A program made the position numbers and the translations under genes. The notes under the pieces were generated by a model. That model made no database searches and had not been told where the DNA came from. It worked only from the letters and a program-made list of their open reading frames with translations. Shown piece after piece: positions 8,120 through 37,797 of a stretch of DNA of 64,000 nt. The stretch spans positions 340,967 through 404,966 of the forward strand of contig QHVT01000006.1 of NCBI GenBank assembly GCA_003223645.1, given 5' to 3'. The DNA comes from Acidobacteriota bacterium (GTDB taxonomy: Bacteria > Acidobacteriota > Thermoanaerobaculia > Gp7-AA8). Every line of letters starts with the position of its first letter. The first letter of the stretch is position 1.

Positions 8120-8335
8120 GCGAAGACGCCGAAGGATCTCGAAATGTGCGGAGATGTGCGTATTCAAACACATCGCAAGAGCAGTGAACGATGAAGGATG
8201 ATCGATGAAAGATGATCGATGAAGGATCCGAAATGTCATTCATCCTTCATCGTTAACGTACTCGCGGAGATCGTCGGATCTTGGCTTTTGGAATTTCGAG
8301 ATCCTTCGCCGTCTTCGCGGCTCAGGATGACGGTG
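8120..8335. repeat. Degenerate MITE-like element related to the GTCATCCTGAG family, with internal GATGAAGGATGATCGATGAAAG sub-repeats
   Basis: Contains CGAAGGATCTCGAAATG and GAGATCCTTCGCCGTCTTCGCGGCTCAGGATGAC, matching the ends of the compact element at 37639-37732. Confidence 0.5.
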
Positions 8336-11996: not shown

Positions 11997-12677
11997 ATGT
12001 CAACGAACGATGCGGCAGATCACGAGACCGCGCAAAAGTGGCTGAAGACACTATCCGGGCAAGTGCTGCGACTGAGAATGGATTACCGCATCTGGGACGA
12101 GACCCAGGCGATCATTCGGGCTAATCCAAAATTACATCGCTCCAGTGAATTCTATCGCTGGATGAGAGAAATGTTTGTGTCCGGCGTCGCAATGTCGGTA
12201 CGCCGCTTAACCGACAGCGACACCCGCGCTATTTCGTTCTTCCGTTTCCTGAAGCTCGTGAAGGGCAATGCATCTCTCGTGTCGCGTCAGCGATACCGTA
12301 AGTTGTATAGAGACGACGACGTCTTTTCGCAGCAGCTTCGGGAATTGGGAATCATGACGGATCACGTGAAGGCGGAATACGAGATGCTGGTTGGACCCGG
12401 GAAGGAGCAGCCGAGTCCTGACGATATTCAGCGCGAACTTGACGCGATGCAGCAGTTAACTTCGAAGATCGTTGCGCTGGCAGACTCCTCGATCGCTCAT
12501 CACGAAGAAAAGAAGCCGGAGGATCTCCCAACCTTTGCCGACGTTGACAAGGCGATCAGCTTTTTCGAAGAGCTTCTAAAACGATATCGGTTGCTGTTCG
12601 ATGCCACGAGCATGTCTACGGATATTACGTTCCAGTACGATTGGAAAGCGATCTTCCGCGTGCCTTGGATTCCTTAG
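11997..12677 (+). CDS. Hypothetical alpha-helical protein (accessory, lower GC)
   Basis: 226 aa ORF with protein-like composition in a lower-GC patch; no family recognised by eye. Confidence 0.45.
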   Translation: MSTNDAADHETAQKWLKTLSGQVLRLRMDYRIWDETQAIIRANPKLHRSSEFYRWMREMFVSGVAMSVRRLTDSDTRAISFFRFLKLVKGNASLVSRQRYRKLYRDDDVFSQQLRELGIMTDHVKAEYEMLVGPGKEQPSPDDIQRELDAMQQLTSKIVALADSSIAHHEEKKPEDLPTFADVDKAISFFEELLKRYRLLFDATSMSTDITFQYDWKAIFRVPWIP

Positions 12678-12847
12678 AGGTCGCCCAACGGCTTGAGCCT
12701 AAGCTGCACGGCCAGGGCCTACGTGCCGAAGCCGACGCGGCACGGCGGCCGCAGCGAATGAGTCGAATCCGACGAGTCGCAAACTGCGGCCGGCGTGCCG
12801 CCGCTCATTCTTGTATGTTGACGAGCAGGCTCGGCCGCACGCAGGAG

Positions 12848-13465
12848 TTAGCCGGCCGATCGTAAGACGCTTTCAATGTAACCTACCGCATCCTCAAAAT
12901 TGACAAGGACCTTGCACTGATAGTGAGCGAGTTCATCGTAGATTGCGGGATTGGCGAAACCCTTTCGATCTTGGCTTACAAAGCATTTCGGCCCGACTGG
13001 TGTTGACTTCGCGTGCGCTATCACACTTGCCAGCACAATGGAATCAGGCGGCGAAAGGGAACATCGACGCTCGAGTTCTACGGCAGCTATGAGAACTTCG
13101 GTAGATAGTGGCTCAATTGTGCCATGTTCTTCGATAACAGCAATTGCCTGCTCAAGGCGGCCGCGCGCTTCTTCGCCGCTTGCGACTATTGCGGCGAGGA
13201 GATCTTTCGACGTCTCAGGGAGTGCTTCGAACTGTTGTGAACGAGAGAGCTGCCGTATGAGCGGCTGAAGCTGATCTCGCAACAGAATATTTCTTTCCGA
13301 AAGGCGGATGTCCCAAGTGCTACGTGCTTCTGCGACGGAAAATGCCGGAATCACGAGAGCCACTGAACGGCGTCTTGCCAGCGCGAGGATCGTTTCACAA
13401 CTCTGGCGGCGCTCCTGAAGGTATGCCACCTCAAGGAGGAAGTTAGTTTCCGCGTAGACAATCAC
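12848..13465 (-). CDS. PIN-like domain protein (tentative)
   Basis: N-terminus MIVYAETNFLLE resembles PIN first strand (x-V-x-D/E-T-N-x-L); acidic residues downstream; 4-nt overlap with upstream ORF. Confidence 0.35.
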   Translation of the reverse strand: MIVYAETNFLLEVAYLQERRQSCETILALARRRSVALVIPAFSVAEARSTWDIRLSERNILLRDQLQPLIRQLSRSQQFEALPETSKDLLAAIVASGEEARGRLEQAIAVIEEHGTIEPLSTEVLIAAVELERRCSLSPPDSIVLASVIAHAKSTPVGPKCFVSQDRKGFANPAIYDELAHYQCKVLVNFEDAVGYIESVLRSAG

Positions 13466-13908
13466 GCAGCTTGGGACCTGATGACACCATCACGAATTGA
13501 TTCAATAAGCCCCGAGTCCCGAAGCCATGCAGGTTGTTCGGCTTCCGGCATTCCTGCAACGACGTCACTCAGCCAAGCGTAGATCAGCGCTTCGAAACTG
13601 CGCTCGCTGAGAGTGTCAAGAGAACCATGGAGACGGAGAAGATATGGCCGAAGAGCAACCGCAGTGTCTCCTTCAAACTCGGGCGGCCCAGCCTCACCGC
13701 TTGGATGACGCCACAGATATAGGTGATCCCGAAGGGCTAGCAGGAAGAATGGAGCAGGCGGTATCTGCGCATGCACGAGCAAGTTGCGCAAGAATCTTCC
13801 TGCCCATTCCGGCGATGGAGCAATGGTGTTGTTCGCCTCGACGACGAGCTGTATGGCTCCACCTGGTTTTTCAACCACGAAGTCGGCGGTCGGTCGTCTC
13901 TCTTCCAT
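13462..13908 (-). CDS. Hypothetical protein co-transcribed with PIN-like gene
   Basis: 148 aa ORF, stop overlaps start of 12848-13465 gene. Confidence 0.4.
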   Translation of the reverse strand: MEERRPTADFVVEKPGGAIQLVVEANNTIAPSPEWAGRFLRNLLVHAQIPPAPFFLLALRDHLYLWRHPSGEAGPPEFEGDTAVALRPYLLRLHGSLDTLSERSFEALIYAWLSDVVAGMPEAEQPAWLRDSGLIESIRDGVIRSQAA

Positions 13909-13957
13909 CGCTCGGGTGATTCTATCCGAAACTTCACCCGGTCAGCCCAACTCCGAC

Positions 13958-14482
13958 TTACCGTGTTGCAACCGCGCGCTCGAGTACTGCAAGACGCACA
14001 TCCCTCGGTCCCGCGATCTCGATGATCGCGCAACCGAGCTCGTACCCGCCGATGATCTCGAGCAGCTGGTCATTCATCGCTTCGCGCAGTGCCGGATCCT
14101 CGGACTCCGGTACATCGATGCGATCGGTGTCATTGAGAGGAAGGACGACGAGCAGGTCGACGTGGCGCATGCCGGTGGCGACGAGCTCCAACGCGGGCTC
14201 GATCAGGTCTCGAGCGTCGAGTGCGCGGAGGTACGCGAGAAAATCGACGGGACTGCGCTCCGCGATCACGCGCGCTCCGCGCTCGTGTGTACTGAGCCGC
14301 TCCACGCAAATCTCGAGTTGGCGATAGAAGTCGTCCGCTGCCGGCGGGTCGCTCATTTGATCGAGCCATTCGTACGGCTCGGGCTCGAACGCATAGTCCG
14401 CGTGAGCGGCGAGGAAGTCTTCGATCAGCGTGGTCTTCCCCGAGGCGTGCGTGCCGGAAACGGCGATTCTCACGCGGATCAC
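13958..14482 (-). CDS. Small P-loop NTPase (AAA_28-like ATPase/kinase fold)
   Basis: Walker A GTHASGKTT at residues 9-17; Walker B-like DLLVVLP; 174 aa. Confidence 0.6.
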   Translation of the reverse strand: MIRVRIAVSGTHASGKTTLIEDFLAAHADYAFEPEPYEWLDQMSDPPAADDFYRQLEICVERLSTHERGARVIAERSPVDFLAYLRALDARDLIEPALELVATGMRHVDLLVVLPLNDTDRIDVPESEDPALREAMNDQLLEIIGGYELGCAIIEIAGPRDVRLAVLERAVATR

Positions 14483-15333: not shown

Positions 15334-17521
15334 GCGGGTGGACCGGCGCGGACGCGGCACGGCGATGCATCCACGCGTGCACCGTCTTCAGTTGCCGCGC
15401 GACGCGCAGACCGTTCTCTTCGACGGCGCGGCCGGTCTGATACGTGTCGATCGCGCAGTCGATCGCGCCGGTGCGCAGCCACGCTTCGACGCAGCCGGTG
15501 ACCGGCACCACATCGATTGCCGGATCCATCACGTCTCGCGCGACACTCGGCCACGCGGACGCACACGTGCTGCGTGATTCACCATCGCCGATTTCGACGA
15601 GGCGACAGGGATCGACGCCCAGCGGAAAGAGTGCTTCGATCTGGTCGCCGTCCTCGAGTCGCACGTCCTCGCCGAAGATCGCGTAGCCGGCCCATCCGCG
15701 CCGCAACATCGCCGGCAGATCGCGCGATCGCGCGAAGACGACTTGCAGCGCATGCGACGTGATGTTCCACGTCAGCTCGCCGGACTTGAACGGACCGGCG
15801 GCAATGCCGCCGTCATCGAAGAACGCGCGCAACAGCGAGCGCATCACCGCGCTGTTCGGCGCGGCGACGATCACCGGCGTTCGTTCCGCGGACGCAGCGA
15901 GATCCACAGCGTGCATCGCGCAATCGCGACGCGCGATCGCCGCGGCAGCCGCGAGCAACGCGCGCTGCAACATGACGCGCGCTTCGGCGAGCGCGGTGTC
16001 GCCAAGACGGGTCATGCGCGTGCCGGCGCAATTGAGAACGCGCACCGCGTGACGGTCGAGCCATTCGACGACGCGCGCGGCAACGTCGTCGGCAGGAACG
16101 CCGCGCAACTCGAGTACCGGCCGCCCCAGCCACCTCGCCGCTTTCCTCGTCTCCTCCGACCCCTCGGATTGCGCGTAGTCGAGCAGCAGCGTTCCGTCGC
16201 TCGCGAACACGTTCGCCCATGTGCAGAACCGGTAGCTCGGCGTCGCCAGCTCGAGAATCGTTGCGCCGTCGAGACGATCGGGTCCGCCTTCTCCGAGCTC
16301 GCTGCACTCGGTGCGCTTTCCCTCCGGCATGATTGCGAACGCCGTCACACCGAACGTGCGCGCGGTCTGCAGCGCGAGTTGATCGATTCCCGTTTGTCCG
16401 CAGCTCGTGATCACGAGCCCCGGACTGAGGTGCAATCGCGTCGCGAACGACGCCTCGGTCGTGCTGGAACTGCGCCGCTCGATGTGCGCGGGAAAAATCT
16501 CATTCAGGTCGTCGCTGCGCGGGACGTGCGACGACGGCGACTGCATCGCCGCGCGCGCCTGCGCCTGCGCCATGGCATGCGCATCGTCGACGCTCGCACC
16601 GTCGATGCGGCAGGCGAGAAACGCGCCGGCGTACGCGTCGCCGGCGCCGAGGACGTGCACTGCCGATGGAGCACTCTCGAGCGGCAAATGAATCGCGTCG
16701 CGTGCCCCGCGCTCTTTCCAGACCACGGGGCGCGAGCCGTCGGTGCCGATGCATTCGACGTTCGCGACGACGGATGCGAAGCGCAGCGAGCTCTCGTCCT
16801 GCAATGCCAGCTCCACGAAGTCACGCCGCTGACCGATCAGGAATCGCAGATTTGCAAACTGCTCGAGACGCGCGGGCGATCGCCAATCTGCAATCAACAG
16901 TGCCAGCTGATCGCAGCGATGAATGAAATCGAGCAGCGCATCGTCCGCGGCCAAGGCATCGCACAGCGTCATGACCAACAGATCGCACGGCTGCAAATCG
17001 CGATCGCCCTGCAGTTGCGCATTGTGTTCGTAGATCGCGATCTGCCGCACGTCGCCGGTCGTCTCTTCGATCAGGCAGTAGGCCTCGCGCGTGAATCCCT
17101 TTCGCCACACCGGCTCGAGGGCGACTCCCCACGCGCGCAGATGCGCGAGTCCGGCGTCGCTGAGAATCGCGTCGTCGAATTCGGCGTGGCCGTGCCAGCG
17201 GATCGGACCGGGACGCAGTGCGGCATTGTGGCGACCGCTGCCCTCGGCGGTCGCGGTGCCGCTGCGGGCAGCGGCACCCACAACGCGCGCCGATGCTGCC
17301 GCGCAGAGCGTGTTCGAAACCGTTCCTCCCGGCGTCCATCGCTGCTGCCCTCGCTCCGCCGCGAATCGCCGGTACGCCTCGCGTTCCTCGGAAGAGATCG
17401 CGAGCCGCACGTGGACGTCCGGCGCATGCGTTCGCAGAAACGCGTCGATCTCTCCGGAGGGAGCGATGATGATGTCATCGCGCGTGGCATGCCCGATCCC
17501 CAGTACAACGGCATCAGGCAT
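15296..17521 (-). CDS. Tri-domain fusion: PfkB-family sugar/nucleoside kinase + SLOG (putative molybdenum-carrier-like) domain + HisG-type ATP phosphoribosyltransferase
   Basis: PfkB motifs TPGGTVSNTLCAAASARV and GAGDAYAGAF; SLOG/MoCo-carrier motif ITSCGQTGIDQLALQTA ... SYRFCTWANVFASDGTLLL; HisG motifs DLPAMLRRGWAGYAIFGEDVRLE, LGVDPCRLVE, TGCVEAWLRTGAIDCAIDTYQTGRAVEENGL; ATG overlaps upstream gene stop by 8 nt (ATGCCTGA). Confidence 0.7.
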   Translation of the reverse strand: MPDAVVLGIGHATRDDIIIAPSGEIDAFLRTHAPDVHVRLAISSEEREAYRRFAAERGQQRWTPGGTVSNTLCAAASARVVGAAARSGTATAEGSGRHNAALRPGPIRWHGHAEFDDAILSDAGLAHLRAWGVALEPVWRKGFTREAYCLIEETTGDVRQIAIYEHNAQLQGDRDLQPCDLLVMTLCDALAADDALLDFIHRCDQLALLIADWRSPARLEQFANLRFLIGQRRDFVELALQDESSLRFASVVANVECIGTDGSRPVVWKERGARDAIHLPLESAPSAVHVLGAGDAYAGAFLACRIDGASVDDAHAMAQAQARAAMQSPSSHVPRSDDLNEIFPAHIERRSSSTTEASFATRLHLSPGLVITSCGQTGIDQLALQTARTFGVTAFAIMPEGKRTECSELGEGGPDRLDGATILELATPSYRFCTWANVFASDGTLLLDYAQSEGSEETRKAARWLGRPVLELRGVPADDVAARVVEWLDRHAVRVLNCAGTRMTRLGDTALAEARVMLQRALLAAAAAIARRDCAMHAVDLAASAERTPVIVAAPNSAVMRSLLRAFFDDGGIAAGPFKSGELTWNITSHALQVVFARSRDLPAMLRRGWAGYAIFGEDVRLEDGDQIEALFPLGVDPCRLVEIGDGESRSTCASAWPSVARDVMDPAIDVVPVTGCVEAWLRTGAIDCAIDTYQTGRAVEENGLRVARQLKTVHAWMHRRAASAPVHPLIAAFARWLHAA
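17228..17284. repeat. REP-like double-hairpin element, compact copy 3, inserted in-frame inside the PfkB domain coding region
   Basis: GTGGCGACCGCTGCCCTCGGCGGTCGCGGTGCCGCTGCGGGCAGCGGCACCCACAA; translated on minus strand as VVGAAARSGTATAEGSGRH directly after the PfkB GG..N..A...R motif. Confidence 0.75.
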
Positions 17522-18881
17522 ATTTCGTCACGGCGCCGCCGCAGTCGGTGATCATCTGACTCTCCAACTCTGCGATCTGCGGCGACCTGCGCGACGTCGA
17601 GAATTCGTCGCGCACCCAGGCCTCGAAGTCGGGATCCTGACGCGGCACCATGATGCCGTTCTTGAACTTCAATACGCTCTCTTTGAGCAGACGGATCTTC
17701 GCCTGCGGATGCATCCGGATGTAGCGGTAGGCAGTCACTCGATCGACGACCGCGACATCGCCGGCCGCCGCACTCACGATGCTGAGCGCAGTTCCGATGT
17801 CCGGATTCTGCACCACGATCGTATTGAACGACTCGATGCGGAGCTCGCGCACGGCGTACTCCCAACCGGCCTCCCCTTCCGCGACCGCCCAACGCAGTTG
17901 CATGCCGCGCAGATCGTCGAGCGTCTGGATCTTGCTGTCGTCCGCCACGACGGCGCAGAGGTCGATGCTGTGGAAGTTGCACGTGAAGTCCGCGTAGTCG
18001 CGGCGCTCGGAAGTCTCGAACACCGACAGCACGAGATCGATCGCGCGCGGATCCGCGACCGGCTTCGCGAAGATGTCGCTGGTGAACTCCTGCCATTGAA
18101 TCGGAACGAAGTCCACTTGCAGTCCGGTGCGCGCGGCGACGTCGCGCGCGAGATCGACGTAGTAGCCGCTGAACGTGACTTGCCGGTCATTCGTGAATTG
18201 GTAATCGGCGAGCGGCGGATGTTTCGTGACGCCGCAGCGCAGATGCCGTTTCGACATCACCAGCTCGCGGCGGCTCGGACGAAGGGACGTTGGTGAGAGT
18301 CTCGCGGTCGAGAGCTCCGGCCGCTGGAGCAATTGTCGTAAATGCTGCTCCACCCGTTCAAAGAATCCCTTCTCGCTGCCGCGGACTCCCGAATACGTTC
18401 CGATGATGCCGAGCTTCTCGACTTCCTCGCGAAACTTGAACACGCGCGTCAGCTCTTTCGAGGCCGCGACGGACTTCGGCTGCGGAGGATCATCGTTGAA
18501 ATAGAACAGCATCCACGCCTGCGTCTTCGCGTTCACGTTCTCGAGCGCGTTGCGGAACTCCTTCTCCGTACCCGACGCGCGCTTGCCGCCGCCGCCGAAG
18601 CGGGACGACATGATGCCGAGGTAGATGTCGCAGAGAGGCGTCTGGTCGTCGACGACGTCCTGCGGCGCGAGCCCGAGGCGCGGGATGACGTTGTCCTCCC
18701 ACTTGAACAGCTTGAGCTGACGCCCGGTCAGATTCCCCTCGGTTTCGTTGATGCGCGCGATCACTTCATCGAGGACGTTGCGCTCCGGCTCGCAGTCGCC
18801 GGGCGAAGAGACGAAGATTCGGATGAATGACAATGGAGGCTCCGGCTTTTTGGGATGTCGATGCTTCCCAAAATGATACAC
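17514..18881 (-). CDS. DUF4062-like N-terminal domain fused to cytoplasmic family-3 solute-binding (PBP type II) domain
   Basis: GTG start with GAGG 5 nt upstream; N-terminus FIRIFVSSPGDCEPERNVL matches DUF4062 signature; C-terminal 250 aa match SBP_bac_3 (GYYVDLARDVAARTGLQVDFVPIQWQEF ... LDDLRGMQL ... VDRVTAYRYI); no signal peptide. Confidence 0.65.
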   Translation of the reverse strand: MYHFGKHRHPKKPEPPLSFIRIFVSSPGDCEPERNVLDEVIARINETEGNLTGRQLKLFKWEDNVIPRLGLAPQDVVDDQTPLCDIYLGIMSSRFGGGGKRASGTEKEFRNALENVNAKTQAWMLFYFNDDPPQPKSVAASKELTRVFKFREEVEKLGIIGTYSGVRGSEKGFFERVEQHLRQLLQRPELSTARLSPTSLRPSRRELVMSKRHLRCGVTKHPPLADYQFTNDRQVTFSGYYVDLARDVAARTGLQVDFVPIQWQEFTSDIFAKPVADPRAIDLVLSVFETSERRDYADFTCNFHSIDLCAVVADDSKIQTLDDLRGMQLRWAVAEGEAGWEYAVRELRIESFNTIVVQNPDIGTALSIVSAAAGDVAVVDRVTAYRYIRMHPQAKIRLLKESVLKFKNGIMVPRQDPDFEAWVRDEFSTSRRSPQIAELESQMITDCGGAVTKYA

Positions 18882-19055
18882 GGAGCCTCACTTGCGCGCG
18901 CGGCTCAGCGCGACGCCGAGCGCGAGCATTCCACGGGATCATCCAGTGGTGATTCGTCGCTTCGCCGACTCGTACGCATAGTCGCAGCACTGCGCTGGAC
19001 GTCGTTCTTCTGATTCTTGAGTGATAAATCCCGGCGTGTCGGCGCCGGGGCAATT

Positions 19056-19235
19056 TCACGGAAGCGGTGGTCGCATCCCGTCATCGTCAGGTTGTAGCGT
19101 GAAAACGCTCCTGATAATCCGCGCAATGCGATCGAAGAAGCCGTCATGGCGGTCGCCCGGATCGTTTGAACGCGCGAGTGCGGGTGTGGAGCCAAGAGCA
19201 ATGAGCAGCAAGGCGCCGGAAAAGAGCCTTCGCAT
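19056..19235 (-). CDS. Small secreted peptide (59 aa, signal peptide + about 38 aa)
   Basis: MRRLFSGALLLIALGSTPALARS... ending GMRPPLP; below ORF-track size cutoff; sits between TPR-like genes and DUF4062 gene. Confidence 0.3.
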   Translation of the reverse strand: MRRLFSGALLLIALGSTPALARSNDPGDRHDGFFDRIARIIRSVFTLQPDDDGMRPPLP

Positions 19236-19277
19236 GTGAGACCCCCTTGAACAGGCGGTCCACTCTCGCGGGCGATG

Positions 19278-19931
19278 TTACACGGTCAGCGGTGAGATCG
19301 GCGCCCGGAAGGGGAACGGACGCTGATACGTGATCCGAAAGATGTATCGGCGAACGTCGAATACCACGTCCTCGGTCAGCGCATATTGCTGGGCGAGCTC
19401 GCGCAAGTACGTCATGACTTCAGCAGTGAGCCCGCGCCTGCGCGTCGGCTCATTCCGATCCAACCGGGTCGAGTATTCGGCTAGAGATCGACATATGGAG
19501 ATCGCGGCCTTGTATCGTTCGAGCGCGACCGTTGATGCCACCGCGTCGATTCCCACACGAACGAGCGCATCGTCGTTGTTTAAGAGCTGATACTTCGCCG
19601 TCGCGTCAGCGAACGCATCGAGTGCCGGATCATGTTCGGTCCTCAGCGCAAGGAGCTTTCCACGCAGCCAGTAATCACGCGCGAGGAGAGCGGTTGCGTT
19701 TCGACGCCGGTCATCCACTTCGAGAGCCGCCAGGCATTCATCGATATCGCTGGCGGCGTCTCCATTTTCGATGCGTGCCCACAACAAATTACTGAGCGCA
19801 TCGTGCCAGGCAGCGATGTCGCTCTCAGGAGTTCGAACGAATACCTCATGACAGACCTCAACGGAACGGGGATCGCCGCTCCGATAAAGTAGTAATCCAC
19901 GCGTACTCCGCGCGCGAAGCCATCCACTCAA
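19278..19931 (-). CDS. TPR-like helical repeat protein (possibly C-terminal part of a frameshifted gene)
   Basis: 217 aa, helical repeat character (DYWLRGKLLALRTEHDPALDAFADATAKYQLL); TTG start overlapping upstream ORF stop; lower GC. Confidence 0.45.
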   Translation of the reverse strand: MSGWLRARSTRGLLLYRSGDPRSVEVCHEVFVRTPESDIAAWHDALSNLLWARIENGDAASDIDECLAALEVDDRRRNATALLARDYWLRGKLLALRTEHDPALDAFADATAKYQLLNNDDALVRVGIDAVASTVALERYKAAISICRSLAEYSTRLDRNEPTRRRGLTAEVMTYLRELAQQYALTEDVVFDVRRYIFRITYQRPFPFRAPISPLTV

Positions 19932-20323
19932 TCGCGACGAACATAGATCGGCTCTACGACATCCAAGAGTGCTCTTGCGTCGTCAGGACACCAAATATCG
20001 CGCTCGATGGCCAGCAACGCCCGTGACAATAGAATCGACGCATCTGCCAACTCCACATCCCGAACGTGCATCGCCGCTTCCGTTGCTGCGGCAAGAGCGA
20101 TGCGGCACTCCTCATAGCGTCCCGACTCGCGTAGAAGCGCGGAATGAATCTTCCACGTCTCGAAACGATGAAGGAAGTCGAGCCGACCGCGGGCATGATC
20201 CGCGCCTACACCGCCGCGTGTATCGCAATTACCGATGACGAGACGATCTCGCCGCTCGATCTGTTCGAGCTGCAGCCGGACGCGGAGGAGATCGCGGCGG
20301 CGCGAAGGCGTTACGAGCAGCAT
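19928..20323 (-). CDS. Hypothetical helical protein (possible N-terminal part of the same TPR-like gene)
   Basis: 131 aa; stop overlaps start of 19278-19931 ORF. Confidence 0.4.
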   Translation of the reverse strand: MLLVTPSRRRDLLRVRLQLEQIERRDRLVIGNCDTRGGVGADHARGRLDFLHRFETWKIHSALLRESGRYEECRIALAAATEAAMHVRDVELADASILLSRALLAIERDIWCPDDARALLDVVEPIYVRRD

Positions 20324-20360: not shown

Positions 20361-20885
20361 TCATTGAGAACGCGCAGCCGCTGCTTCTGCGCATACGCTC
20401 GTGTCGAATCTGTATCCGTGCCACCAGCGAGCCCACAAGCGCCACAACGGACGAATCAGGCGCCAGTGCCACGCGTGACGGCGTATCTGCCGAAGACGTG
20501 TCTCGCCGAACCTGTCAGACAACTCCGGGGAAAGGCAGCCCTCTAACAGGATTTGTCCGTGCTCGCATCTGGCCTGGACTAAATAGTCTCGTTCCGCAAA
20601 CAAATCACCGCAGGAAGTCTGTACGTGAACGACGATCGATCGCCCGAGCGGTTTGGTGAACCACTGCGTTACCTCGACCGTCGAGACAGGATGGGGGTAA
20701 GGATAACCATCCGTGACCGTCACCTCGCGATTGGTGACATGGCCTGTGAACAGGATCTCGGCACTGAGAAACGTCTGGCGAGCCGGGGGTGGTAGACATT
20801 GGCAGGCGCGGATGCTTCGGGTGCTCGCGAGCGAGAGCGCGATCACGGCGATGCAGACATACCAGCGGTGCTGTGTCACTGGCAT
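20361..20885 (-). CDS. Secreted NTR/TIMP-like (tissue inhibitor of metalloproteinase-like) OB-fold protein
   Basis: Signal peptide MPVTQHRWYVCIAVIALSLAS then mature N-terminus ACQCLPPPARQTFLSAEILFTGHV resembling TIMP N-terminal CxC..P...AF motif; later TSCG. Confidence 0.5.
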   Translation of the reverse strand: MPVTQHRWYVCIAVIALSLASTRSIRACQCLPPPARQTFLSAEILFTGHVTNREVTVTDGYPYPHPVSTVEVTQWFTKPLGRSIVVHVQTSCGDLFAERDYLVQARCEHGQILLEGCLSPELSDRFGETRLRQIRRHAWHWRLIRPLWRLWARWWHGYRFDTSVCAEAAAARSQ

Positions 20886-20895
20886 CGACCAATCG

Positions 20896-21840
20896 TCAGC
20901 GAGCCTTCTTGGCCATTCGATCCAATCCCTCGACGGTGTGCCGCAAGCCCAGTTCCGCTTCGGCGCGAACCGCAATGCTCTTGGTGGCGAGCGCGTCACG
21001 GTAGTAGCTCTGCGCGAACTTGAAGTACTTCACTGCCTCGGTCTCGTCTCCACGCCGCTCTGCTGTCCATGCCTCGTAGCGCCCAGAATCCGCGGCGGCC
21101 TTCAGCAGGTACGGATATGCGGGAGAGGTTTCGAACCTGTCGGCCGCCTCAAGCAGAGCGGGGATAGAATTCCTGTCGCCACGGTGGAGCGCACGAAGCG
21201 CAAGGACATATGGGTAATACCCCGATTCCGGATGGAACTGGCGGATCTCATCGGCGAGCGCCATGCCCGGCTTGGTCGCCTGGAACGAGATGTCTGACCA
21301 CTTGCCATCCGATATGGTCTGCATACGCTTCCAGATTTCCGCGTCGATCCCGACAGGCTCCATAACGGTGATCGCGACCGTTGGCGTGCGGACGGCGCAG
21401 ATCGGGTCAAAAAACTCATCGCCGACGCGCAACTCGAGGGCGATGCCATAGGCTCCGGGACCAGAGAATGACGGATAGATGAACCAACTCGGAATACCGT
21501 GGTCCCAACTCGCCGCCTGCTGCATCGACTGGCCTGGCTGGAGACGGGACGGCAGAAGTGACTGGAGGGTCCACTGATCGTGCGCCTCCGGATCCGGGTT
21601 GTGCATCACCTTCGTTTCACCGCCAGGGAAGGTCACCACCAGGGTGGCCTCGGCCCCGCTGATCGTGACCGGCCGATCCGAAACATTGGTATACGTGACG
21701 ACGATGTCGAACGGGATACCCGGAAGAACGTGATCGTATGGAAGCGTCAGCCTGGCCTCGACCGGCGTCGCTGCCTGGCCCGTCGGCGCCAGGACGGCTG
21801 AGAGGATCACCACCGCGGCTGCAAGCATCGATCTCATCAT
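20896..21840 (-). CDS. Secreted hypothetical protein (Ig-like N-region, TPR-like C-region)
   Basis: Start MMRSMLAAAVVILSAVLAPTGQA at 21840; 314 aa. Confidence 0.55.
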   Translation of the reverse strand: MMRSMLAAAVVILSAVLAPTGQAATPVEARLTLPYDHVLPGIPFDIVVTYTNVSDRPVTISGAEATLVVTFPGGETKVMHNPDPEAHDQWTLQSLLPSRLQPGQSMQQAASWDHGIPSWFIYPSFSGPGAYGIALELRVGDEFFDPICAVRTPTVAITVMEPVGIDAEIWKRMQTISDGKWSDISFQATKPGMALADEIRQFHPESGYYPYVLALRALHRGDRNSIPALLEAADRFETSPAYPYLLKAAADSGRYEAWTAERRGDETEAVKYFKFAQSYYRDALATKSIAVRAEAELGLRHTVEGLDRMAKKAR

Positions 21841-21848
21841 CCCTCCTT

Positions 21849-22793
21849 TTACGGCTCGAACGGGTCGCGCCGCTTGCGAATTTCGAGATATTCCGAGTGG
21901 ATTCCGCCGCCCGGCAAAGTCAGGAAGTGGAAACGAGCGATTCCGTTCATGCGCTGGGAGAAAGTACCGGCGCCCGGATCGGCATATGCAGCGAGCAGGC
22001 AATAGATCTTTGGATCATCCCAGACCTTCGTCGTAGTTGGGCAGTGATCGAACAGATTCCACAGGCCGTTCGTCCTCCATTGGTGAGCAATCTCGTGAGC
22101 TGCCGTTTTCTTGGCCCACAGACTCACGTCGCTCGCATTGTTTCCGCTCAAGGCGTGGTCGATTGTGTCGCAGAATACCCACGACGACGTCCGGGCATCC
22201 ACCTCCGAGATGGTGAGTCCTGCATCGGGTCCAAAGGCGTCGCCCGCGGCTTCATCCGACGCGATGACCAGCAACTGGTGATTCGGCTCGAGCGTACCGG
22301 TCGCGATTGTCGTCCGGCACGCGCTGCGCCTGCGGTACATAGAGCGCGGTGTCTGGAGGATCGGCGACGCGCAGCCAGACGTCCGCTTCCGGACTCGCGG
22401 TATTCGAAGTCACGGCGCCGCGGAATCGGAAGCGCGGCTTCCCTCCGGGCTGGCTCGAAACGATCTGGAACGGCGAGAGATCCGTGTCGCCCGGCTTCGG
22501 GTGAAGAATGAGCTTCTGCGACATCGCCGGCACGAGCACGAACGCGAACTTCCGCGGCTCGGTTCTGAAAATCAGCTCGCCCTTCTCAGCGGAATCCGCA
22601 CCTTCAAGTAGCTCCAGTTCGAGCCCGCGGTGTCCATAAACGCGATGTTTCTCGTTCCCTCGAAGTATCTGCAGCCTTCGGTGCTGATCTGCGGATTCCA
22701 GTCGATGAGGATCGTGTGATCCGTCGCCTGCGCGAAACCTTTGACTGCGAGTAGCAGCGCGAACGCGGCCGCGATGACATTCGACCTTTGCAT
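21849..22793 (-). pseudogene. Secreted zincin-like metallopeptidase (HExxH) disrupted by two frameshifts
   Basis: Signal-peptide ORF 22572-22793 (MQRSNVIAAAFALLLAVKGFAQA) continues in a second frame (22252-22572) and then a third (21849-22340) containing AHEIAHQW zinc-binding motif; the three frames tile without gaps. Confidence 0.45.
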
Positions 22794-23152
22794 TGAAGAC
22801 CTCTCTGCGAGCGAATGTAGGTCGGCCTACTCCCATCCGTCAATATGGAGCAAACATGCGTCACGACGATTGACGGGAGTCTGAAGGGATTGTGCAGCGA
22901 CGACCTTAGGCGCCACCTCACGCGCTTGTGAACAGCGCGTCCACGGGCCGCGATGCCATCGATCTTTGTCATCCCGGGTAATCGCCATCACTGCATACGA
23001 GCGGCACAAGCGAGTGGCGCGGCGGTTGCGGACGACGCGACAACGGGGTTCGCGATGCAAACCGGTGGGCTCGCGAGCTCACGACGTGGGATCGGGTGGG
23101 AGAGACGCGGGTCGCGCGCGCGGACGCGCCGCGCAACCCGCGAAAGGGTTGC

Positions 23153-23686: not shown

Positions 23687-24133
23687 CGGGAAAAAGTACG
23701 CCTCCCGGTATCCCGGCGCAACCTTGTCCATCCGTTCGGCCATCGTTCCGGCGAAGTCAATCAGCTCGCCGTGCAGCGCGGCGTCCAGCGTCATCCGCTG
23801 CTCTCCAGCAACCGTCTCCAGCGCCAGAATGATGAACTCCGGCAGCCGGACGGTGACGGCGCGAAGGGCCAGCAGGGGCGGCAGGACTCGCGCAGCGTCC
23901 GCACCAAGCGCGTCCGCTATCTCCGCAAGCGTCCATCGCTCCATCGCCACGTAAACGGCCTGACGCCACAGGAAGCGCCATCGGCCGCGCACCCTTTCCG
24001 CGTCGCGGTCACCGCCCGCTACCTCCCGCCGCAGCGCGCGGACTGGCGTGTCCGTCAGGCGCGCAACCTCGCCGAGAGTGTACGACTCTGCCGGGTCGAG
24101 AAAGAGCGAACGGATGCGCTGACATCTGTCCAT
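23672..24133 (-). CDS. Helix-turn-helix domain protein (MerR/excisionase-like HTH, tentative)
   Basis: ESYTLGEVARLTDTPVRALRRE HTH-like segment; start at internal M (MDRCQRIRS); C-terminus overlaps left IR. Confidence 0.4.
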   Translation of the reverse strand: MDRCQRIRSLFLDPAESYTLGEVARLTDTPVRALRREVAGGDRDAERVRGRWRFLWRQAVYVAMERWTLAEIADALGADAARVLPPLLALRAVTVRLPEFIILALETVAGEQRMTLDAALHGELIDFAGTMAERMDKVAPGYREAYFFPGRPN

Positions 24134-24195
24134 CGAAGCCTCCCACCTAACTATAGTGGGATGGAGGTTACACCGATCTATGGTTAGGGTAAAGG

Positions 24196-24459
24196 GTGAT
24201 GTCACGTCGGAAGGAACGGAGCCCGGAAGGGCAGCGGTTCGGCGACACGTTGCGCCGACTTCGGAACGAGCGCGACCTGAGTCAGGAACGGCTCGCGGAA
24301 GCGGCGAATCTGACGGCGGATTACGTCGGCTTCGTCGAGCGCGGGGAGAACGTGCCGACGCTGACCGTTCTCCTCAAGCTGGCGAGGGCGCTCAGAGTCG
24401 ATGCGTCGGAGTTACTGAGCGAGTTCACGGTAGCGACGTTGAAGCGCATGAAGTTGTAG
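24196..24459 (+). CDS. XRE-family (Cro/C1-type) HTH transcriptional regulator
   Basis: LRRLRNERDLSQERLAEAANLTADYVGFVERGENVPTLTVLLKLARAL is a classic XRE HTH. Confidence 0.8.
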   Translation: MMSRRKERSPEGQRFGDTLRRLRNERDLSQERLAEAANLTADYVGFVERGENVPTLTVLLKLARALRVDASELLSEFTVATLKRMKL

Positions 24460-24537
24460 GCTACTCCGTCGCTGCCCGCGCAACTGTCGATCCTGGACAA
24501 GTCGAGGGAGGAATTACCCTTGCGGCGGCGTGACAGG

Positions 24538-25536
24538 CTATCGGTATTTCAACTGTGTTTCGTCTGTGTCGTTGTGCTCATTACAGACGTCAAATGTCTT
24601 AAATTGCGGCGACAGGAGATAGCAGAACGTCAGCCAGTGCGGATGGCGGAAAACATCCTTGTACTCTACACGCCCGTGCACCCATACCAACGCGGAACCG
24701 TTGGCAATCTCGTCTATGTAGCTTTGGGTCATGGCGAGCGGGCGGTGCGCTTTGTCCTGAATCGGAAATGTACTGAGGTGATACGGAACCGTAGGCGCGA
24801 TGACGCCGCGACTGTCAAGCACGCCAACAACGATGTCATCGTATTTAAAAGAAGGCTTCTCGGTGGGGCGGGTGACTTCCAGTTTAAAATCAGCATGAAC
24901 GTGCAGTGCTGGAGTCTTGCCTGTATTTCTAATCGATACGTCTGCCTTATACGGCGAACCTACAACCAATTCTCCCTTAATATTATCGACACCAAGCCAC
25001 GCACGTTGATCCAAACGAGAGGCGTTGATACTCGCGTCAAGCGCGGCCCTACCTTGCGCAAGATTGGTTTTCAGCACATTCTGGTTTTCGCCCAGCAGCT
25101 TCGCAAGTTCCTCGCGGTTTTCCTTCAGCGTGTTCTCGATCGCCGCCTTGTTTTGGGCGAGGTTCGTTTTATTGTCGGCAACCATCTGCTTCTGATGGTC
25201 AGAGATGGCGTTAGCGGCGGTAATCAATTTGTCAGTTTGTACGCTCGTGCCGTGCATTTCGGCGAGTTGGGAGCGCATCGTCCACCATTGAAGCGCAGCG
25301 AAAAAAGTGTAGACGGCGGTGACTACCACTACCCCACGCGTCCAGTTAAAGCTACGTCGCTGAATTTCGAGGCCTTGCTGTTGAAGTTTGGCGCTAAGTT
25401 CTTCAAATTTGCTGAGGGCATCGCGTATCTTATCCTCGGGAGTCTTGGGGTTCGTATCGCTGGCTGGAGTTTCGACAGTCGGCGGCATCCTATTAGCGCT
25501 GACTGGAGCCTTCTTGTCGGAGTTCTGACCGTTCAT
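24538..25536 (-). CDS. Hypothetical membrane-anchored protein (AT-rich, likely horizontally acquired)
   Basis: 332 aa, single TM (GVVVVTAVYTFFAALQWW), coiled-coil then beta-rich region; preferred over Arg-rich antisense ORF 24520-25584. Confidence 0.5.
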   Translation of the reverse strand: MNGQNSDKKAPVSANRMPPTVETPASDTNPKTPEDKIRDALSKFEELSAKLQQQGLEIQRRSFNWTRGVVVVTAVYTFFAALQWWTMRSQLAEMHGTSVQTDKLITAANAISDHQKQMVADNKTNLAQNKAAIENTLKENREELAKLLGENQNVLKTNLAQGRAALDASINASRLDQRAWLGVDNIKGELVVGSPYKADVSIRNTGKTPALHVHADFKLEVTRPTEKPSFKYDDIVVGVLDSRGVIAPTVPYHLSTFPIQDKAHRPLAMTQSYIDEIANGSALVWVHGRVEYKDVFRHPHWLTFCYLLSPQFKTFDVCNEHNDTDETQLKYR

Positions 25537-25651
25537 GTCGCGGCTGTCCTACTAGCGTTGAGGGTTGTGGTGCTGTTCGTATGATTCGCTGTTGTTAACT
25601 GTAGCACAAAAACTCTGGACAAACATAGATTGTTGTAATACACTTACTCAT

Positions 25652-26383
25652 ATGGCAAACGTCCTCAACGTCGAGAAGCAAACCGTCATCATCGGCTCAC
25701 TCGCCGAGGGATCAAGCATCCGCTCCATCGAGCGTATGACCGGAGTCCACCGTGACACCATCATGCGTCTCGGTGTGAAGGTCGGAGAGGGATGCGCGAA
25801 GATTCTGGACGCGATCATGCGCGATCTTCCCTGCACGCATTTGCAGATGGATGAGATTTGGGGATACATCGGTAAGAAACAGCGCCACGTTGCGCCGTCT
25901 GATGATCCTTCCATGGGCGATGCGTGGACGTTCTGCGCGATCGATTCCGAAACCAAACTCGTTCCGGCGTTCAAGGTCGGAAAGCGCGATAGCGAGACGG
26001 CAAACGCGTTCGTCGCGGACCTTGCCTCGCGCATGAGCAATCGCGTGCAGCTTTCCTCTGATGGTCTCAAGGCGTACGTTGAAGCCGTGGAGTTGGCGTT
26101 CGGTGCCGACGTCGATTACGCGCAGGTCATTAAGACGTACACGGAAGATCAGTCGAAAACGCCGGAGCGCCGCTACAGCGCCGCGCGCATCCTGACTGTA
26201 GAGAAGCGCGCCGTGCAGGGCGATCCCGACATGAAGGCGGCAAATACCAGTTACGTTGAGCGCCTGAACGCCACGACGCGCCAGCACATGCGCCGACTGA
26301 CCCGGCTCACGCATGCCTTCAGCAAGAAACTGGAGAACTTTGAAGCGGCGGTTGCGCTGCACTTCGCGTATTACAACTCGTGA
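25652..26383 (+). CDS. IS1-family transposase (fused InsA-InsB type)
   Basis: N-terminal HTH (SIRSIERMTGVHRDTIMR) and C-terminal DDE region with YVERLNATTRQHMRRLTRLTHAFSKKLENFEAAVALHFAYYN resembling IS1 InsB IERHNLNLRQHLARL...FSKS motif. Confidence 0.7.
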   Translation: MANVLNVEKQTVIIGSLAEGSSIRSIERMTGVHRDTIMRLGVKVGEGCAKILDAIMRDLPCTHLQMDEIWGYIGKKQRHVAPSDDPSMGDAWTFCAIDSETKLVPAFKVGKRDSETANAFVADLASRMSNRVQLSSDGLKAYVEAVELAFGADVDYAQVIKTYTEDQSKTPERRYSAARILTVEKRAVQGDPDMKAANTSYVERLNATTRQHMRRLTRLTHAFSKKLENFEAAVALHFAYYNS

Positions 26384-37648: not shown

Positions 37649-37732
37649 GTCGGCGAAGCGCAACGAAGGATCTCGAAATGCGAAGAGCCTGCAATTTAGA
37701 GATCCTTCGCCGTCTACGCGGCTCAGGATGAC
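37639..37732. repeat. MITE-like nested palindrome with terminal inverted repeats GTCATCCTGAG...CTCAGGATGAC
   Basis: GTCATCCTGAGTCGGCGAAGCGCAACGAAGGATCTCGAAATGCGAAGAGCCTGCAATTTAGAGATCCTTCGCCGTCTACGCGGCTCAGGATGAC; inner IR CGAAGGATCTC/GAGATCCTTCG; degenerate relative at 8120-8335. Confidence 0.75.
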
Positions 37733-37797
37733 GAGCAACACAACGCTCAGAGCGGTCCTGGTTGCTTTGGACCTTGGTAACTTGTTACCATGGTCCC

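Follow-up and report, generated by a model that had tools for sequence, protein, structure and literature searches.

Tissue inhibitors of metalloproteinases (TIMPs) have been called an ancient eukaryotic family (PMC4860685) and are regarded as regulators of the animal extracellular matrix. Bacterial TIMP homologues are present in the databases but essentially unstudied, and our literature search found no work on bacterial TIMP-like proteins besides that on the Mtz-Tim pair of Listeria monocytogenes, which consists of a secreted metzincin and a TIMP-like lipoprotein (Boichis et al. 2021, PMC8235301). The likeness of Tim to TIMPs was derived from structure prediction alone, with approximately 60% confidence. 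Mtz cleaves Tim, and the locus derives from a phage and is controlled by a CI/Cro switch (PMC8235301). Here we describe a locus in a 64,000-nucleotide stretch of DNA (the window) from a soil metagenome-assembled genome (MAG) labelled Acidobacteriota bacterium (proteins PYQ30055-30062; a MAG labelled Gemmatimonadaceae carries identical proteins as well). Three tightly packed reading units, A, B and C, follow each other in this order on the minus strand from 22793 to 20361, with intergenic gaps of 8-10 nt. C encodes a TIMP-like protein, B a predicted secreted protein, and A is the broken remnant of a gene for a putative zinc peptidase. With a probability of roughly 50%, we consider the region to be a decayed three-gene secreted cassette that is characteristic of Acidobacteriota, chiefly of the class Thermoanaerobaculia, with A as putative protease, B as its partner and C as inhibitor of A.

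Like the Mtz-Tim pair, the cassette has the layout of a bacterial operon in which a gene for a secreted HExxH protein lies upstream of a gene for a TIMP-like protein with signal peptide, directly upstream in the case of Mtz-Tim. Listeria Tim carries a lipobox (LTAC; PMC8235301), whereas the predicted cleavage site of C is of the signal peptidase I type. Further differences are the constant presence of gene B between protease and TIMP-like gene, the affiliation of A with an unrelated family of putative proteases of approximately 660 amino acids, and the Acidobacteriota host. Serralysin inhibitors of the Inh/AprI type (MEROPS I38) are encoded beside aprA/prtA, are periplasmic and reach the catalytic zinc with a free N-terminal residue. 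They form an eight-stranded beta-barrel without N-terminal cysteines, and their target is a type I-secreted serralysin. Inh/AprI thus shares with the proposed cassette the location of the inhibitor gene beside the gene for a secreted zinc protease, while its fold is unrelated to that of C.

The original prediction described three minus-strand genes with signal peptides. The open reading frames (ORFs) were found where it had placed them, and the N-termini, as read from the sequence, are conserved in homologues. Signal peptides were judged by eye (n-h-c pattern ending in A-x-A or I-x-A) together with this conservation, and the signal-peptide-like N-termini read MQR-SNVIAAAFALLLAV-KGFAQA↓T for A, MMRS-MLAAAVVILSAVLA-PTGQA↓A for B and MPVTQHR-WYVCIAVIALSLA-STRSIRA↓CQC for C, with the arrow marking the predicted cleavage site. 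The motifs AHEIAHQW, ACQCLPPP and TSCG named in the prediction are likewise all present in the window. Direct comparison with domain collections contributed little: a Pfam scan of all five ORF pieces of the window and of the intact proteins of the related contig L001 yielded nothing useful, and an NCBIfam search with A, B and C gave no match.

The resemblance of C to the netrin-like (NTR) domain of TIMPs, also part of the original prediction, was corroborated by family profiles, by Pfam matches of relatives and by the predicted fold. A word-indexed homology search with C returned one relative only. An exhaustive phmmer search of 1.8 billion representatives yielded ten proteins at E ≤ 1e-3, all of 137-209 amino acids, which share a signal peptide followed by A↓C-x-C, an S-C-G motif and a later cysteine, and which often end in a tail of the RRAWWWRL type. 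When a profile of 11 sequences of the C family was compared with the PDB, only TIMP chains were matched (N-TIMP-3, E = 6.9e-9; TIMP-2, 7.5e-7; TIMP-1, 2.9e-4), and every alignment started at mature TIMP residue 1, which corresponds to Cys28 of C. Five of the 11 sequences match the Pfam family TIMP, and P0073 (23.8 bits) and the Bacillaceae relative P0083 (31.6 bits) pass the gathering cut-off of PF00965 (23.1 bits). Approximately 60 further bacterial proteins were linked to the family by a profile search of a set of 5.8 billion proteins, and several of them carry a precomputed PF00965 assignment or the UniRef name 'Tissue inhibitor of metalloproteinase'. C itself gave no match to Pfam at E values up to 10 and did not reach the TIMP gathering score, nor did a single-sequence PDB search with C return a TIMP. 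Since the window protein itself lacks a Pfam match, its membership in the TIMP/NTR superfamily (PF00965, PF01759; MEROPS I35) rests on transitive and profile evidence.

An AlphaFold2 model of C from a 65-sequence alignment reached a predicted local distance difference test score (pLDDT) of 83.8; an earlier model from a two-sequence alignment (pLDDT 33) was discarded. The best Foldseek E-values against the PDB were obtained for TIMP-1/2/3, the NTR domains of PCOLCE and meteorin, and agrin NtA, all of which are NTR folds (E 3e-4 to 2e-3, template modelling score 0.52-0.65 normalised by target length). Comparison of the model with the viral fold library BFVD gave no significant match and only generic oligonucleotide/oligosaccharide-binding (OB) folds, so that nothing points to an origin from phages. 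We count both the NTR fold of C, an OB-type five-stranded beta-barrel flanked by helices, and its membership in the TIMP/NTR family as established. A collection of 15 billion proteins contained no exact copy of C, whichever of four plausible start codons was assumed. Intact and identical ORFs are present on two further contigs (L132, 3956-4477; L133, 2514-3035), where the public gene calls omit the gene.

The N-terminal domain of TIMPs is held together by the disulfides Cys1-Cys70, Cys3-Cys99 and Cys13-Cys124, and a free Cys1 N-terminus is the key element of TIMP inhibition. C is only approximately 19% identical to TIMPs, but hmmalign with TIMP-2 and TIMP-3 placed its Cys28, Cys30, Cys92 and Cys117 at TIMP Cys1, Cys3, Cys68/72 and Cys9x/101. 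Ala27, Cys28 and Cys30 are at least 90% conserved in the C family, as are Cys92 and Cys117, which are predicted to form the disulfides; P0001, the nearest relative of C, has arginine at position 92. A lipoprotein was considered and rejected, because positions -3 to -1 (I-R-A or A-x-A, family-wide of the type A/V/I-x-A) do not constitute a lipobox. The same cleavage-site residues make it plausible that mature C starts with a free Cys1. In common with the N-domain of animal TIMP-1 to TIMP-4 (PF00965; MEROPS I35), C has an OB-type NTR fold and cysteines equivalent to those of the disulfides Cys1-Cys70 and Cys3-Cys99, and it is predicted to be secreted with a mature chain starting at Cys1 of C-x-C. 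C differs from animal TIMPs in its bacterial origin, in a presumed target that is not a metzincin by motif, and in an Arg/Trp-rich helix that takes the place of the C-terminal domain. In the AlphaFold2 model, residues 125-156 form this single long helix, and the tail bears the subfamily motif R-R-A-W-W-W-R-L, which recurs in three cassette-linked copies (L058, L096 and L099). Bacillaceae, Paenibacillus and related genera have PF00965-positive proteins (unreviewed entries) that are homologous to C at the profile level (E 1e-14 to 1e-21) and resemble it in the signal peptide, the cleavage before cysteine (A↓CSC), the same cysteines and a C-terminal anchor. Unlike C, they comprise approximately 185 amino acids and end in a hydrophobic or LPXTG-type C-terminus instead of the RRAWWWRL tail, and their genes are adjacent neither to A and B nor to any recognisable protease gene.

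The three genes belong together beyond chance: homologues in the same order were found on other contigs. Contig L001, which was reached via the only close relative of C, contains the same three genes in the same order with an intact A of 659 amino acids. When approximately 950 kb of A-family loci were scanned with a TIMP-like hidden Markov model, all matches were located immediately behind B, in the same orientation. Besides the window, seven independent loci carry a TIMP-like gene in this position (L001, L019, L048, L058, L059, and the named MAG contigs L096 and L099). With the exception of A from L001 (92%), the A proteins of these loci are only 26-37% identical to the reference P0002, indicating that the A-B-C arrangement is either old or repeatedly selected. 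We regard the conserved order as strong evidence for a functional link between A, B and C. At L048 (4387-5625), two TIMP-like domains occur in tandem within an ORF of 413 amino acids, and at L059 (5236-5804, identical to L060, 8364-8932) the TIMP-like gene is split over two frames, owing either to a frameshift or to faulty assembly.

The constant partner of A is B, not C. Sequence of 900 bp or more downstream of A is available for 53 independent metagenome loci; in 41 of them a B homologue follows directly on the same strand, and a scan of named genomes agrees with this picture. The B protein of the window is 68% identical to that of L001, with a ratio of non-synonymous to synonymous substitution rates (dN/dS) of 0.24; for the domain of C, dN/dS relative to L001 is 0.32. 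No significant match of B was found in Pfam, NCBIfam or the PDB, and profile searches of Pfam and the PDB gave chance-level matches only (DUF4232 at 0.01 and a TPR-like stretch). In several loci, A is followed by a tandem array of two or three B paralogues (L005, 7172-9887; L006, 6887-10108; L019, 2743-4842; L029, L103 and L108).

Gene A of the window is a real pseudogene and the remnant of a secreted protein of approximately 660 amino acids. According to the original prediction, a protease of approximately 315 amino acids was interrupted by simple frameshifts and its three segments tiled perfectly. Mapping against intact homologues of 659-665 amino acids contradicted both statements: the ORFs do overlap, yet they cover only residues 1-69, 142-243 and approximately 510-663 of these homologues, and two large deletions separate them. 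At the first junction (22587-22599), approximately 72 codons (~216 nt) are lost out of frame, and the frame of the first piece meets a stop codon at 22572. The second junction (22299/22300) lacks approximately 274 codons (~822 nt), again out of frame, and DNA homology of the third piece to L001 begins at 22299. Together, the deletions remove about half of A, including its most conserved central part, and the HEIAH sequence is retained in the third piece (22083-22097, within AHEIAHQW). Since approximately 216 and 822 nt are missing relative to every homologue, the breaks are deletions and not single-nucleotide indels. Programmed frameshifting was rejected on the same grounds, because approximately 1 kb of coding sequence is missing. 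The broken gene recurs in contigs from NCBI, JGI, ENA and Logan assemblies, where ORFs of 73 and 163 amino acids appear; the former is called separately on about nine contigs, and a look-up found the latter on 18. Full-length alignment of three independently assembled ENA/Logan copies showed 100% identity with the window across 2.4-5 kb, and a fourth copy is 99.7% identical. The question left by the original prediction, pseudogene or sequencing error, is thereby settled in favour of a pseudogene, because independent assemblies of different sequencing runs contain the identical broken sequence.

Synonymous divergence between the window (21849-22793) and L001 (452-2431) is saturated in the first two pieces of A and 0.23 in the third; for B and C, it amounts to 0.92 and 0.13-0.18, respectively. 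With 56-64% identity, the N-terminal pieces of A resemble P0003 more closely than L001 (37-47%). As the divergence from L001 is strongly mosaic, the locus appears to have recombined, and the pattern along the cassette suggests recombination between diverged alleles. In a noticeable share of the metagenomic loci (L021, L053, L054, L056, L058, L061, L065, L073, L109 and L127), A-family genes are split into at least two ORFs, which could reflect frequent pseudogenisation or assembly errors at low coverage.

Searches with the intact A of L001 found 66 homologues of approximately 620-720 amino acids, mostly from MAGs or metagenomes of Thermoanaerobaculia or other Acidobacteriota, and none of them has a Pfam domain. 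The family is nearly confined to Acidobacteriota. In an alignment of 30 homologues, H-E-x-x-H is invariant down to 23% identity, and the other invariant residues all lie in the last 150 positions as well: an H-C 13 residues after HExxH, a further cysteine, F-H and S-E-Y..R. The zinc-site motif reads HE[LI]AHQWxxN, with the next invariant histidine 13 residues past the second one, and a downstream C-x-[M/L] position alternates between methionine and leucine, so that a strictly conserved Met-turn is absent. Because HExxH is invariant within the C-terminal ~150 residues, A can be classified as a putative zinc peptidase of an uncurated family. The best Pfam matches, Peptidase_M1 and Reprolysin_5 (both E = 0.02), are not significant, and the latter covers approximately 100 residues in one subgroup of A (P0028). 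Profiles of the whole length and of the C-terminal domain matched the PDB at E 0.5-2, restricted to the zincin active-site helix of M1 aminopeptidases, LTA4 hydrolase and a 'predicted zincin-like metalloprotease'. Compared with these families (all matches non-significant, E 0.02 to 1), the HE[LI]AHQW helix of A matches the M1 active-site helix (HExxHxW), but A lacks the GxMEN motif and the distal glutamate of M1; relative to Reprolysin_5 and other M12B-like proteins, C-x-[M/L] of A sits where adamalysins have the CIM Met-turn. In contrast to known zincins, A contains large N-terminal and central domains with strongly conserved central motifs found in this family only (DPPD.APY, AGDNYQIEAS and TAWKRV.E). 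From the original assignment as zincin-type peptidase, the invariant HExxH thus survives, whereas the profile searches of peptidase M-families remained below significance and the metzincin motif is absent.

In the reading that we favour, A and B would form a secreted proteolytic module, to which C would contribute an optional, envelope-tethered inhibitor of the TIMP type directed against A. Signal peptidase I would cut after Ala27 and expose Cys28 as free N-terminus, disulfides Cys28-Cys92 and Cys30-Cys117 would stiffen an N-terminal wedge as in TIMPs, and the amino and carbonyl groups of Cys1 would chelate the catalytic zinc of A. The basic and aromatic tail may tether C in the cell envelope, where C would restrain A. 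Inhibition of A by C is predicted here from sequence features and by analogy to TIMPs, and presupposes that A would be active as a peptidase. The genome of the window would then contain the module minus its enzyme, with intact B and C possibly still transcribed from the promoter of the cassette. A promoter-like site ahead of A could perhaps still drive B and C; the consensus scan found two such sites where 1.4 are expected by chance, and the scan for promoters and terminators as a whole did not exceed the chance expectation. The more far-reaching claim, that the cassette represents an undescribed acidobacterial secreted A+B protease system whose optional prokaryotic TIMP inhibits A via a zinc-chelating wedge with N-terminal cysteine, and that both have undergone reciprocal loss in the lineage, is advanced only tentatively, and we consider it rather doubtful in its full extent.

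Several observations weigh against C as an inhibitor of A. Cys13 of TIMPs is replaced by leucine in C, so that the third N-domain disulfide (Cys13-Cys124) is absent, and the six-cysteine C-terminal domain of TIMPs is missing, the alignment ending after the N-domain. To our knowledge, all TIMP targets contain the metzincin motif HExxHxxGxxH, which is absent from the alignment of 30 A homologues, and A has no significant match to any curated peptidase family or solved peptidase in Pfam, the PDB or NCBIfam. NTR modules of other proteins are not inhibitors. Only five of 32 metagenome A-B loci with sufficient downstream sequence carry C, and its share among A-B loci with such sequence is approximately 12-16%, two genome loci included. 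At L004 (4428-4565), where A is P0002 itself, C has been deleted; only ~56 nt on the 5' side and ~30 nt on the 3' side are left. C of L001 (3405-3896) has Cys92 replaced by arginine, and a compensated -2/-1 frameshift wipes out its AWxWRL tail motif. P0068, the Bacillaceae proteins and other relatives of C are not encoded beside A; in the Bacillaceae and the further copies, no neighbouring gene is recognisable as one for a protease. Finally, the TIMP-like protein of Listeria is a substrate of its protease (PMC8235301).

Since C is deleted (L004) or altered (L001) in the closest relatives with intact A, A does not need C. An obligatory toxin-immunity pairing of A and C was rejected, because most A-B loci lack C and L004 kept A after losing C. 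The cognate protease-inhibitor pair postulated originally therefore stands only in part: the TIMP-like gene follows A and B in seven further loci, but most A-B loci are without it. In the window A is broken and C intact, and L001 and L004 present the opposite situation, which looks like reciprocal loss of protease and TIMP-like gene, a pattern that comprises three loci only.

The strongest competitor of inhibition is a function of C that is tied to the cassette, either as substrate or released effector of A or as an NTR docking module that attaches A or B to the envelope or matrix. The Listeria precedent fits this reading, as the TIMP-like protein there is cleaved and released by the metzincin and inhibition has not been shown (PMC8235301). 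Likewise, the best Foldseek E-values include the non-inhibitory NTR modules of PCOLCE, meteorin and agrin NtA, A departs from the canonical metzincins, and the tandem TIMP-like domains of L048 would suit such a function. Nevertheless, the C family has kept exactly the features required for TIMP-type inhibition, namely cleavage directly before Cys1, the CxC motif and the two highly conserved partner cysteines, and its sequence profiles favour TIMPs over other NTR families. We judge a role as substrate or docking module to be unlikely, though deserving of serious attention.

Independence from A is a second alternative, with C acting as an envelope-tethered inhibitor of foreign metalloproteases or as an immunity-like protein against metallopeptidase toxins. 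It would explain why C survived in the window while A was destroyed, and it agrees with the existence of other bacterial TIMP-like genes that have no recognisable protease neighbour and with the position of the P0068 gene at the end of an RHS/YD-repeat locus, where the C-terminus of the upstream RHS protein carries HExxH (AHELNH). Two points make this explanation improbable: the TIMP-like gene lies exactly after B in eight independent cassettes, the window included, with very divergent A proteins, and C may not have had time to decay since the deletions in A, all pieces of which still read without a stop codon in their respective frames. The RHS/YD-repeat locus itself (L007; 73-816, 1965-3986 and 4855-5316) is of interest beyond this comparison. 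It ends with P0068, the closest relative of C outside the cassettes (38% identity), and the upstream RHS C-terminal domain contains the HExxH motif within AIAHELNHL, which hints that some TIMP-like proteins may confer immunity to metallopeptidase toxins.

Inhibition of A by C, which we prefer to both of these alternatives, would have lost its target in the window, unless the remnant of A still functions. Expression of the 163-amino-acid ORF (22340-21849) could yield a minimal zincin consisting solely of the catalytic domain: the ORF has an ATG start and the whole conserved C-terminal domain, and it shares 88% identity with its L001 counterpart (dN/dS 0.29). It has, however, neither a signal peptide, although every family member is secreted, nor an obvious ribosome-binding site, the most conserved motifs of the family, AGDNYQIEAS and TAWKRV.E, are lost, and the low dN/dS mostly reflects the history before the deletions; we consider residual function highly unlikely. 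An intact gene in the organism that is disguised by sequencing or assembly artefacts might be suspected in view of the metagenomic origin of the window and of the further split A genes in metagenomes, but can practically be dismissed, given the size of the losses relative to every homologue, far beyond single-nucleotide indels, and the independent assembly of the same sequence from several runs by the NCBI MAG, ENA, Logan and JGI pipelines.

Table 1. Features of the cassette, numbered by position in the window.
Feature	Position	Strand	Description or basis
Promoter-like sequence TTGACG-18-TACATT	22814-22843	minus	~20 nt upstream of the A start codon; consensus scan
Gene A remnant	22793-21849	minus	pieces in three reading frames
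A piece 1	22587-22793	minus	signal peptide and residues equivalent to 1-69; blastx vs P0003, 64% identity; tblastn
A piece 2 (different frame)	22300-22599	minus	equivalent to residues 142-243; blastx and tblastx-type alignments
A piece 3 (putative catalytic domain)	21849-22299	minus	equivalent to residues ~510-659 of L001 A; tblastn
Shine-Dalgarno sequence of gene B, AAGGAGG	21842-21848	minus	strong; past the stop codon of A
Gene B	ATG 21840 to stop 20896	minus	ORF, 314 amino acids, predicted to be secreted
Gene C	ATG 20885 to stop 20361	minus	ORF intact, 174 amino acids
Gene C signal peptide, codons 1-27	20805-20885	minus	signal peptidase I site IRA↓C predicted from A/V/I-x-A pattern
Gene C NTR/N-TIMP-like domain, codons 28-124	20514-20804	minus	hmmalign with TIMP-2/TIMP-3; PDB profile alignments; Foldseek
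Gene C C-terminal Arg/Trp-rich tail, codons 125-160	20406-20513	minus	10 Arg and 6 Trp in 36 residues

Several features of the surrounding window were recorded in addition. Downstream of C, approximately 1 kb of DNA (19181-20176) is absent from L001, to which homology resumes at 19030-19180; in this region, two overlapping minus-strand ORFs (19278-19931, 217 amino acids; 19928-20323, 131 amino acids) are without Pfam match. Further downstream (17514-18881, minus strand), a protein of 455 amino acids combines an N-terminal DUF4062 with a family-3 solute-binding domain (SBP_bac_3), which is an unusual architecture. A sequence of approximately 38 bp occurs at 8298-8335 and 37696-37733 and matches L001 (8394-8480) in both orientations with ~90-95% identity; possibly it represents a short palindromic repeat that related genomes share. 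The G+C content drops to ~0.55 at 12001-14000 and 24001-26000, compared with ~0.60-0.68 elsewhere in the window. The second of these stretches lies just beyond a divergent XRE-type helix-turn-helix gene (24196-24459, plus strand) and an ORF of 332 amino acids without match, and both stretches may be islands of foreign DNA.

The analysis adds to the bacterial TIMP homologues a divergent acidobacterial subfamily with an Arg/Trp-rich tail that was missed by annotation pipelines. Also new are the recurrent placement of a TIMP-like gene after the genes for a HExxH protein, which belongs to an uncharacterised but widespread acidobacterial family, and its partner, and the natural loss of either A or C, which amounts to knock-outs provided by the organisms themselves. 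If C indeed inhibits A, the two would constitute the first cognate bacterial protease-TIMP pair that is backed by conserved gene order across deep divergence, and the TIMP mechanism would act on a zinc protease that is not a metzincin. The cassette thereby offers a testable system for the questions whether TIMP inhibition operates in bacteria, which substrate the A-B module has in soil and how protease-inhibitor pairs decay.

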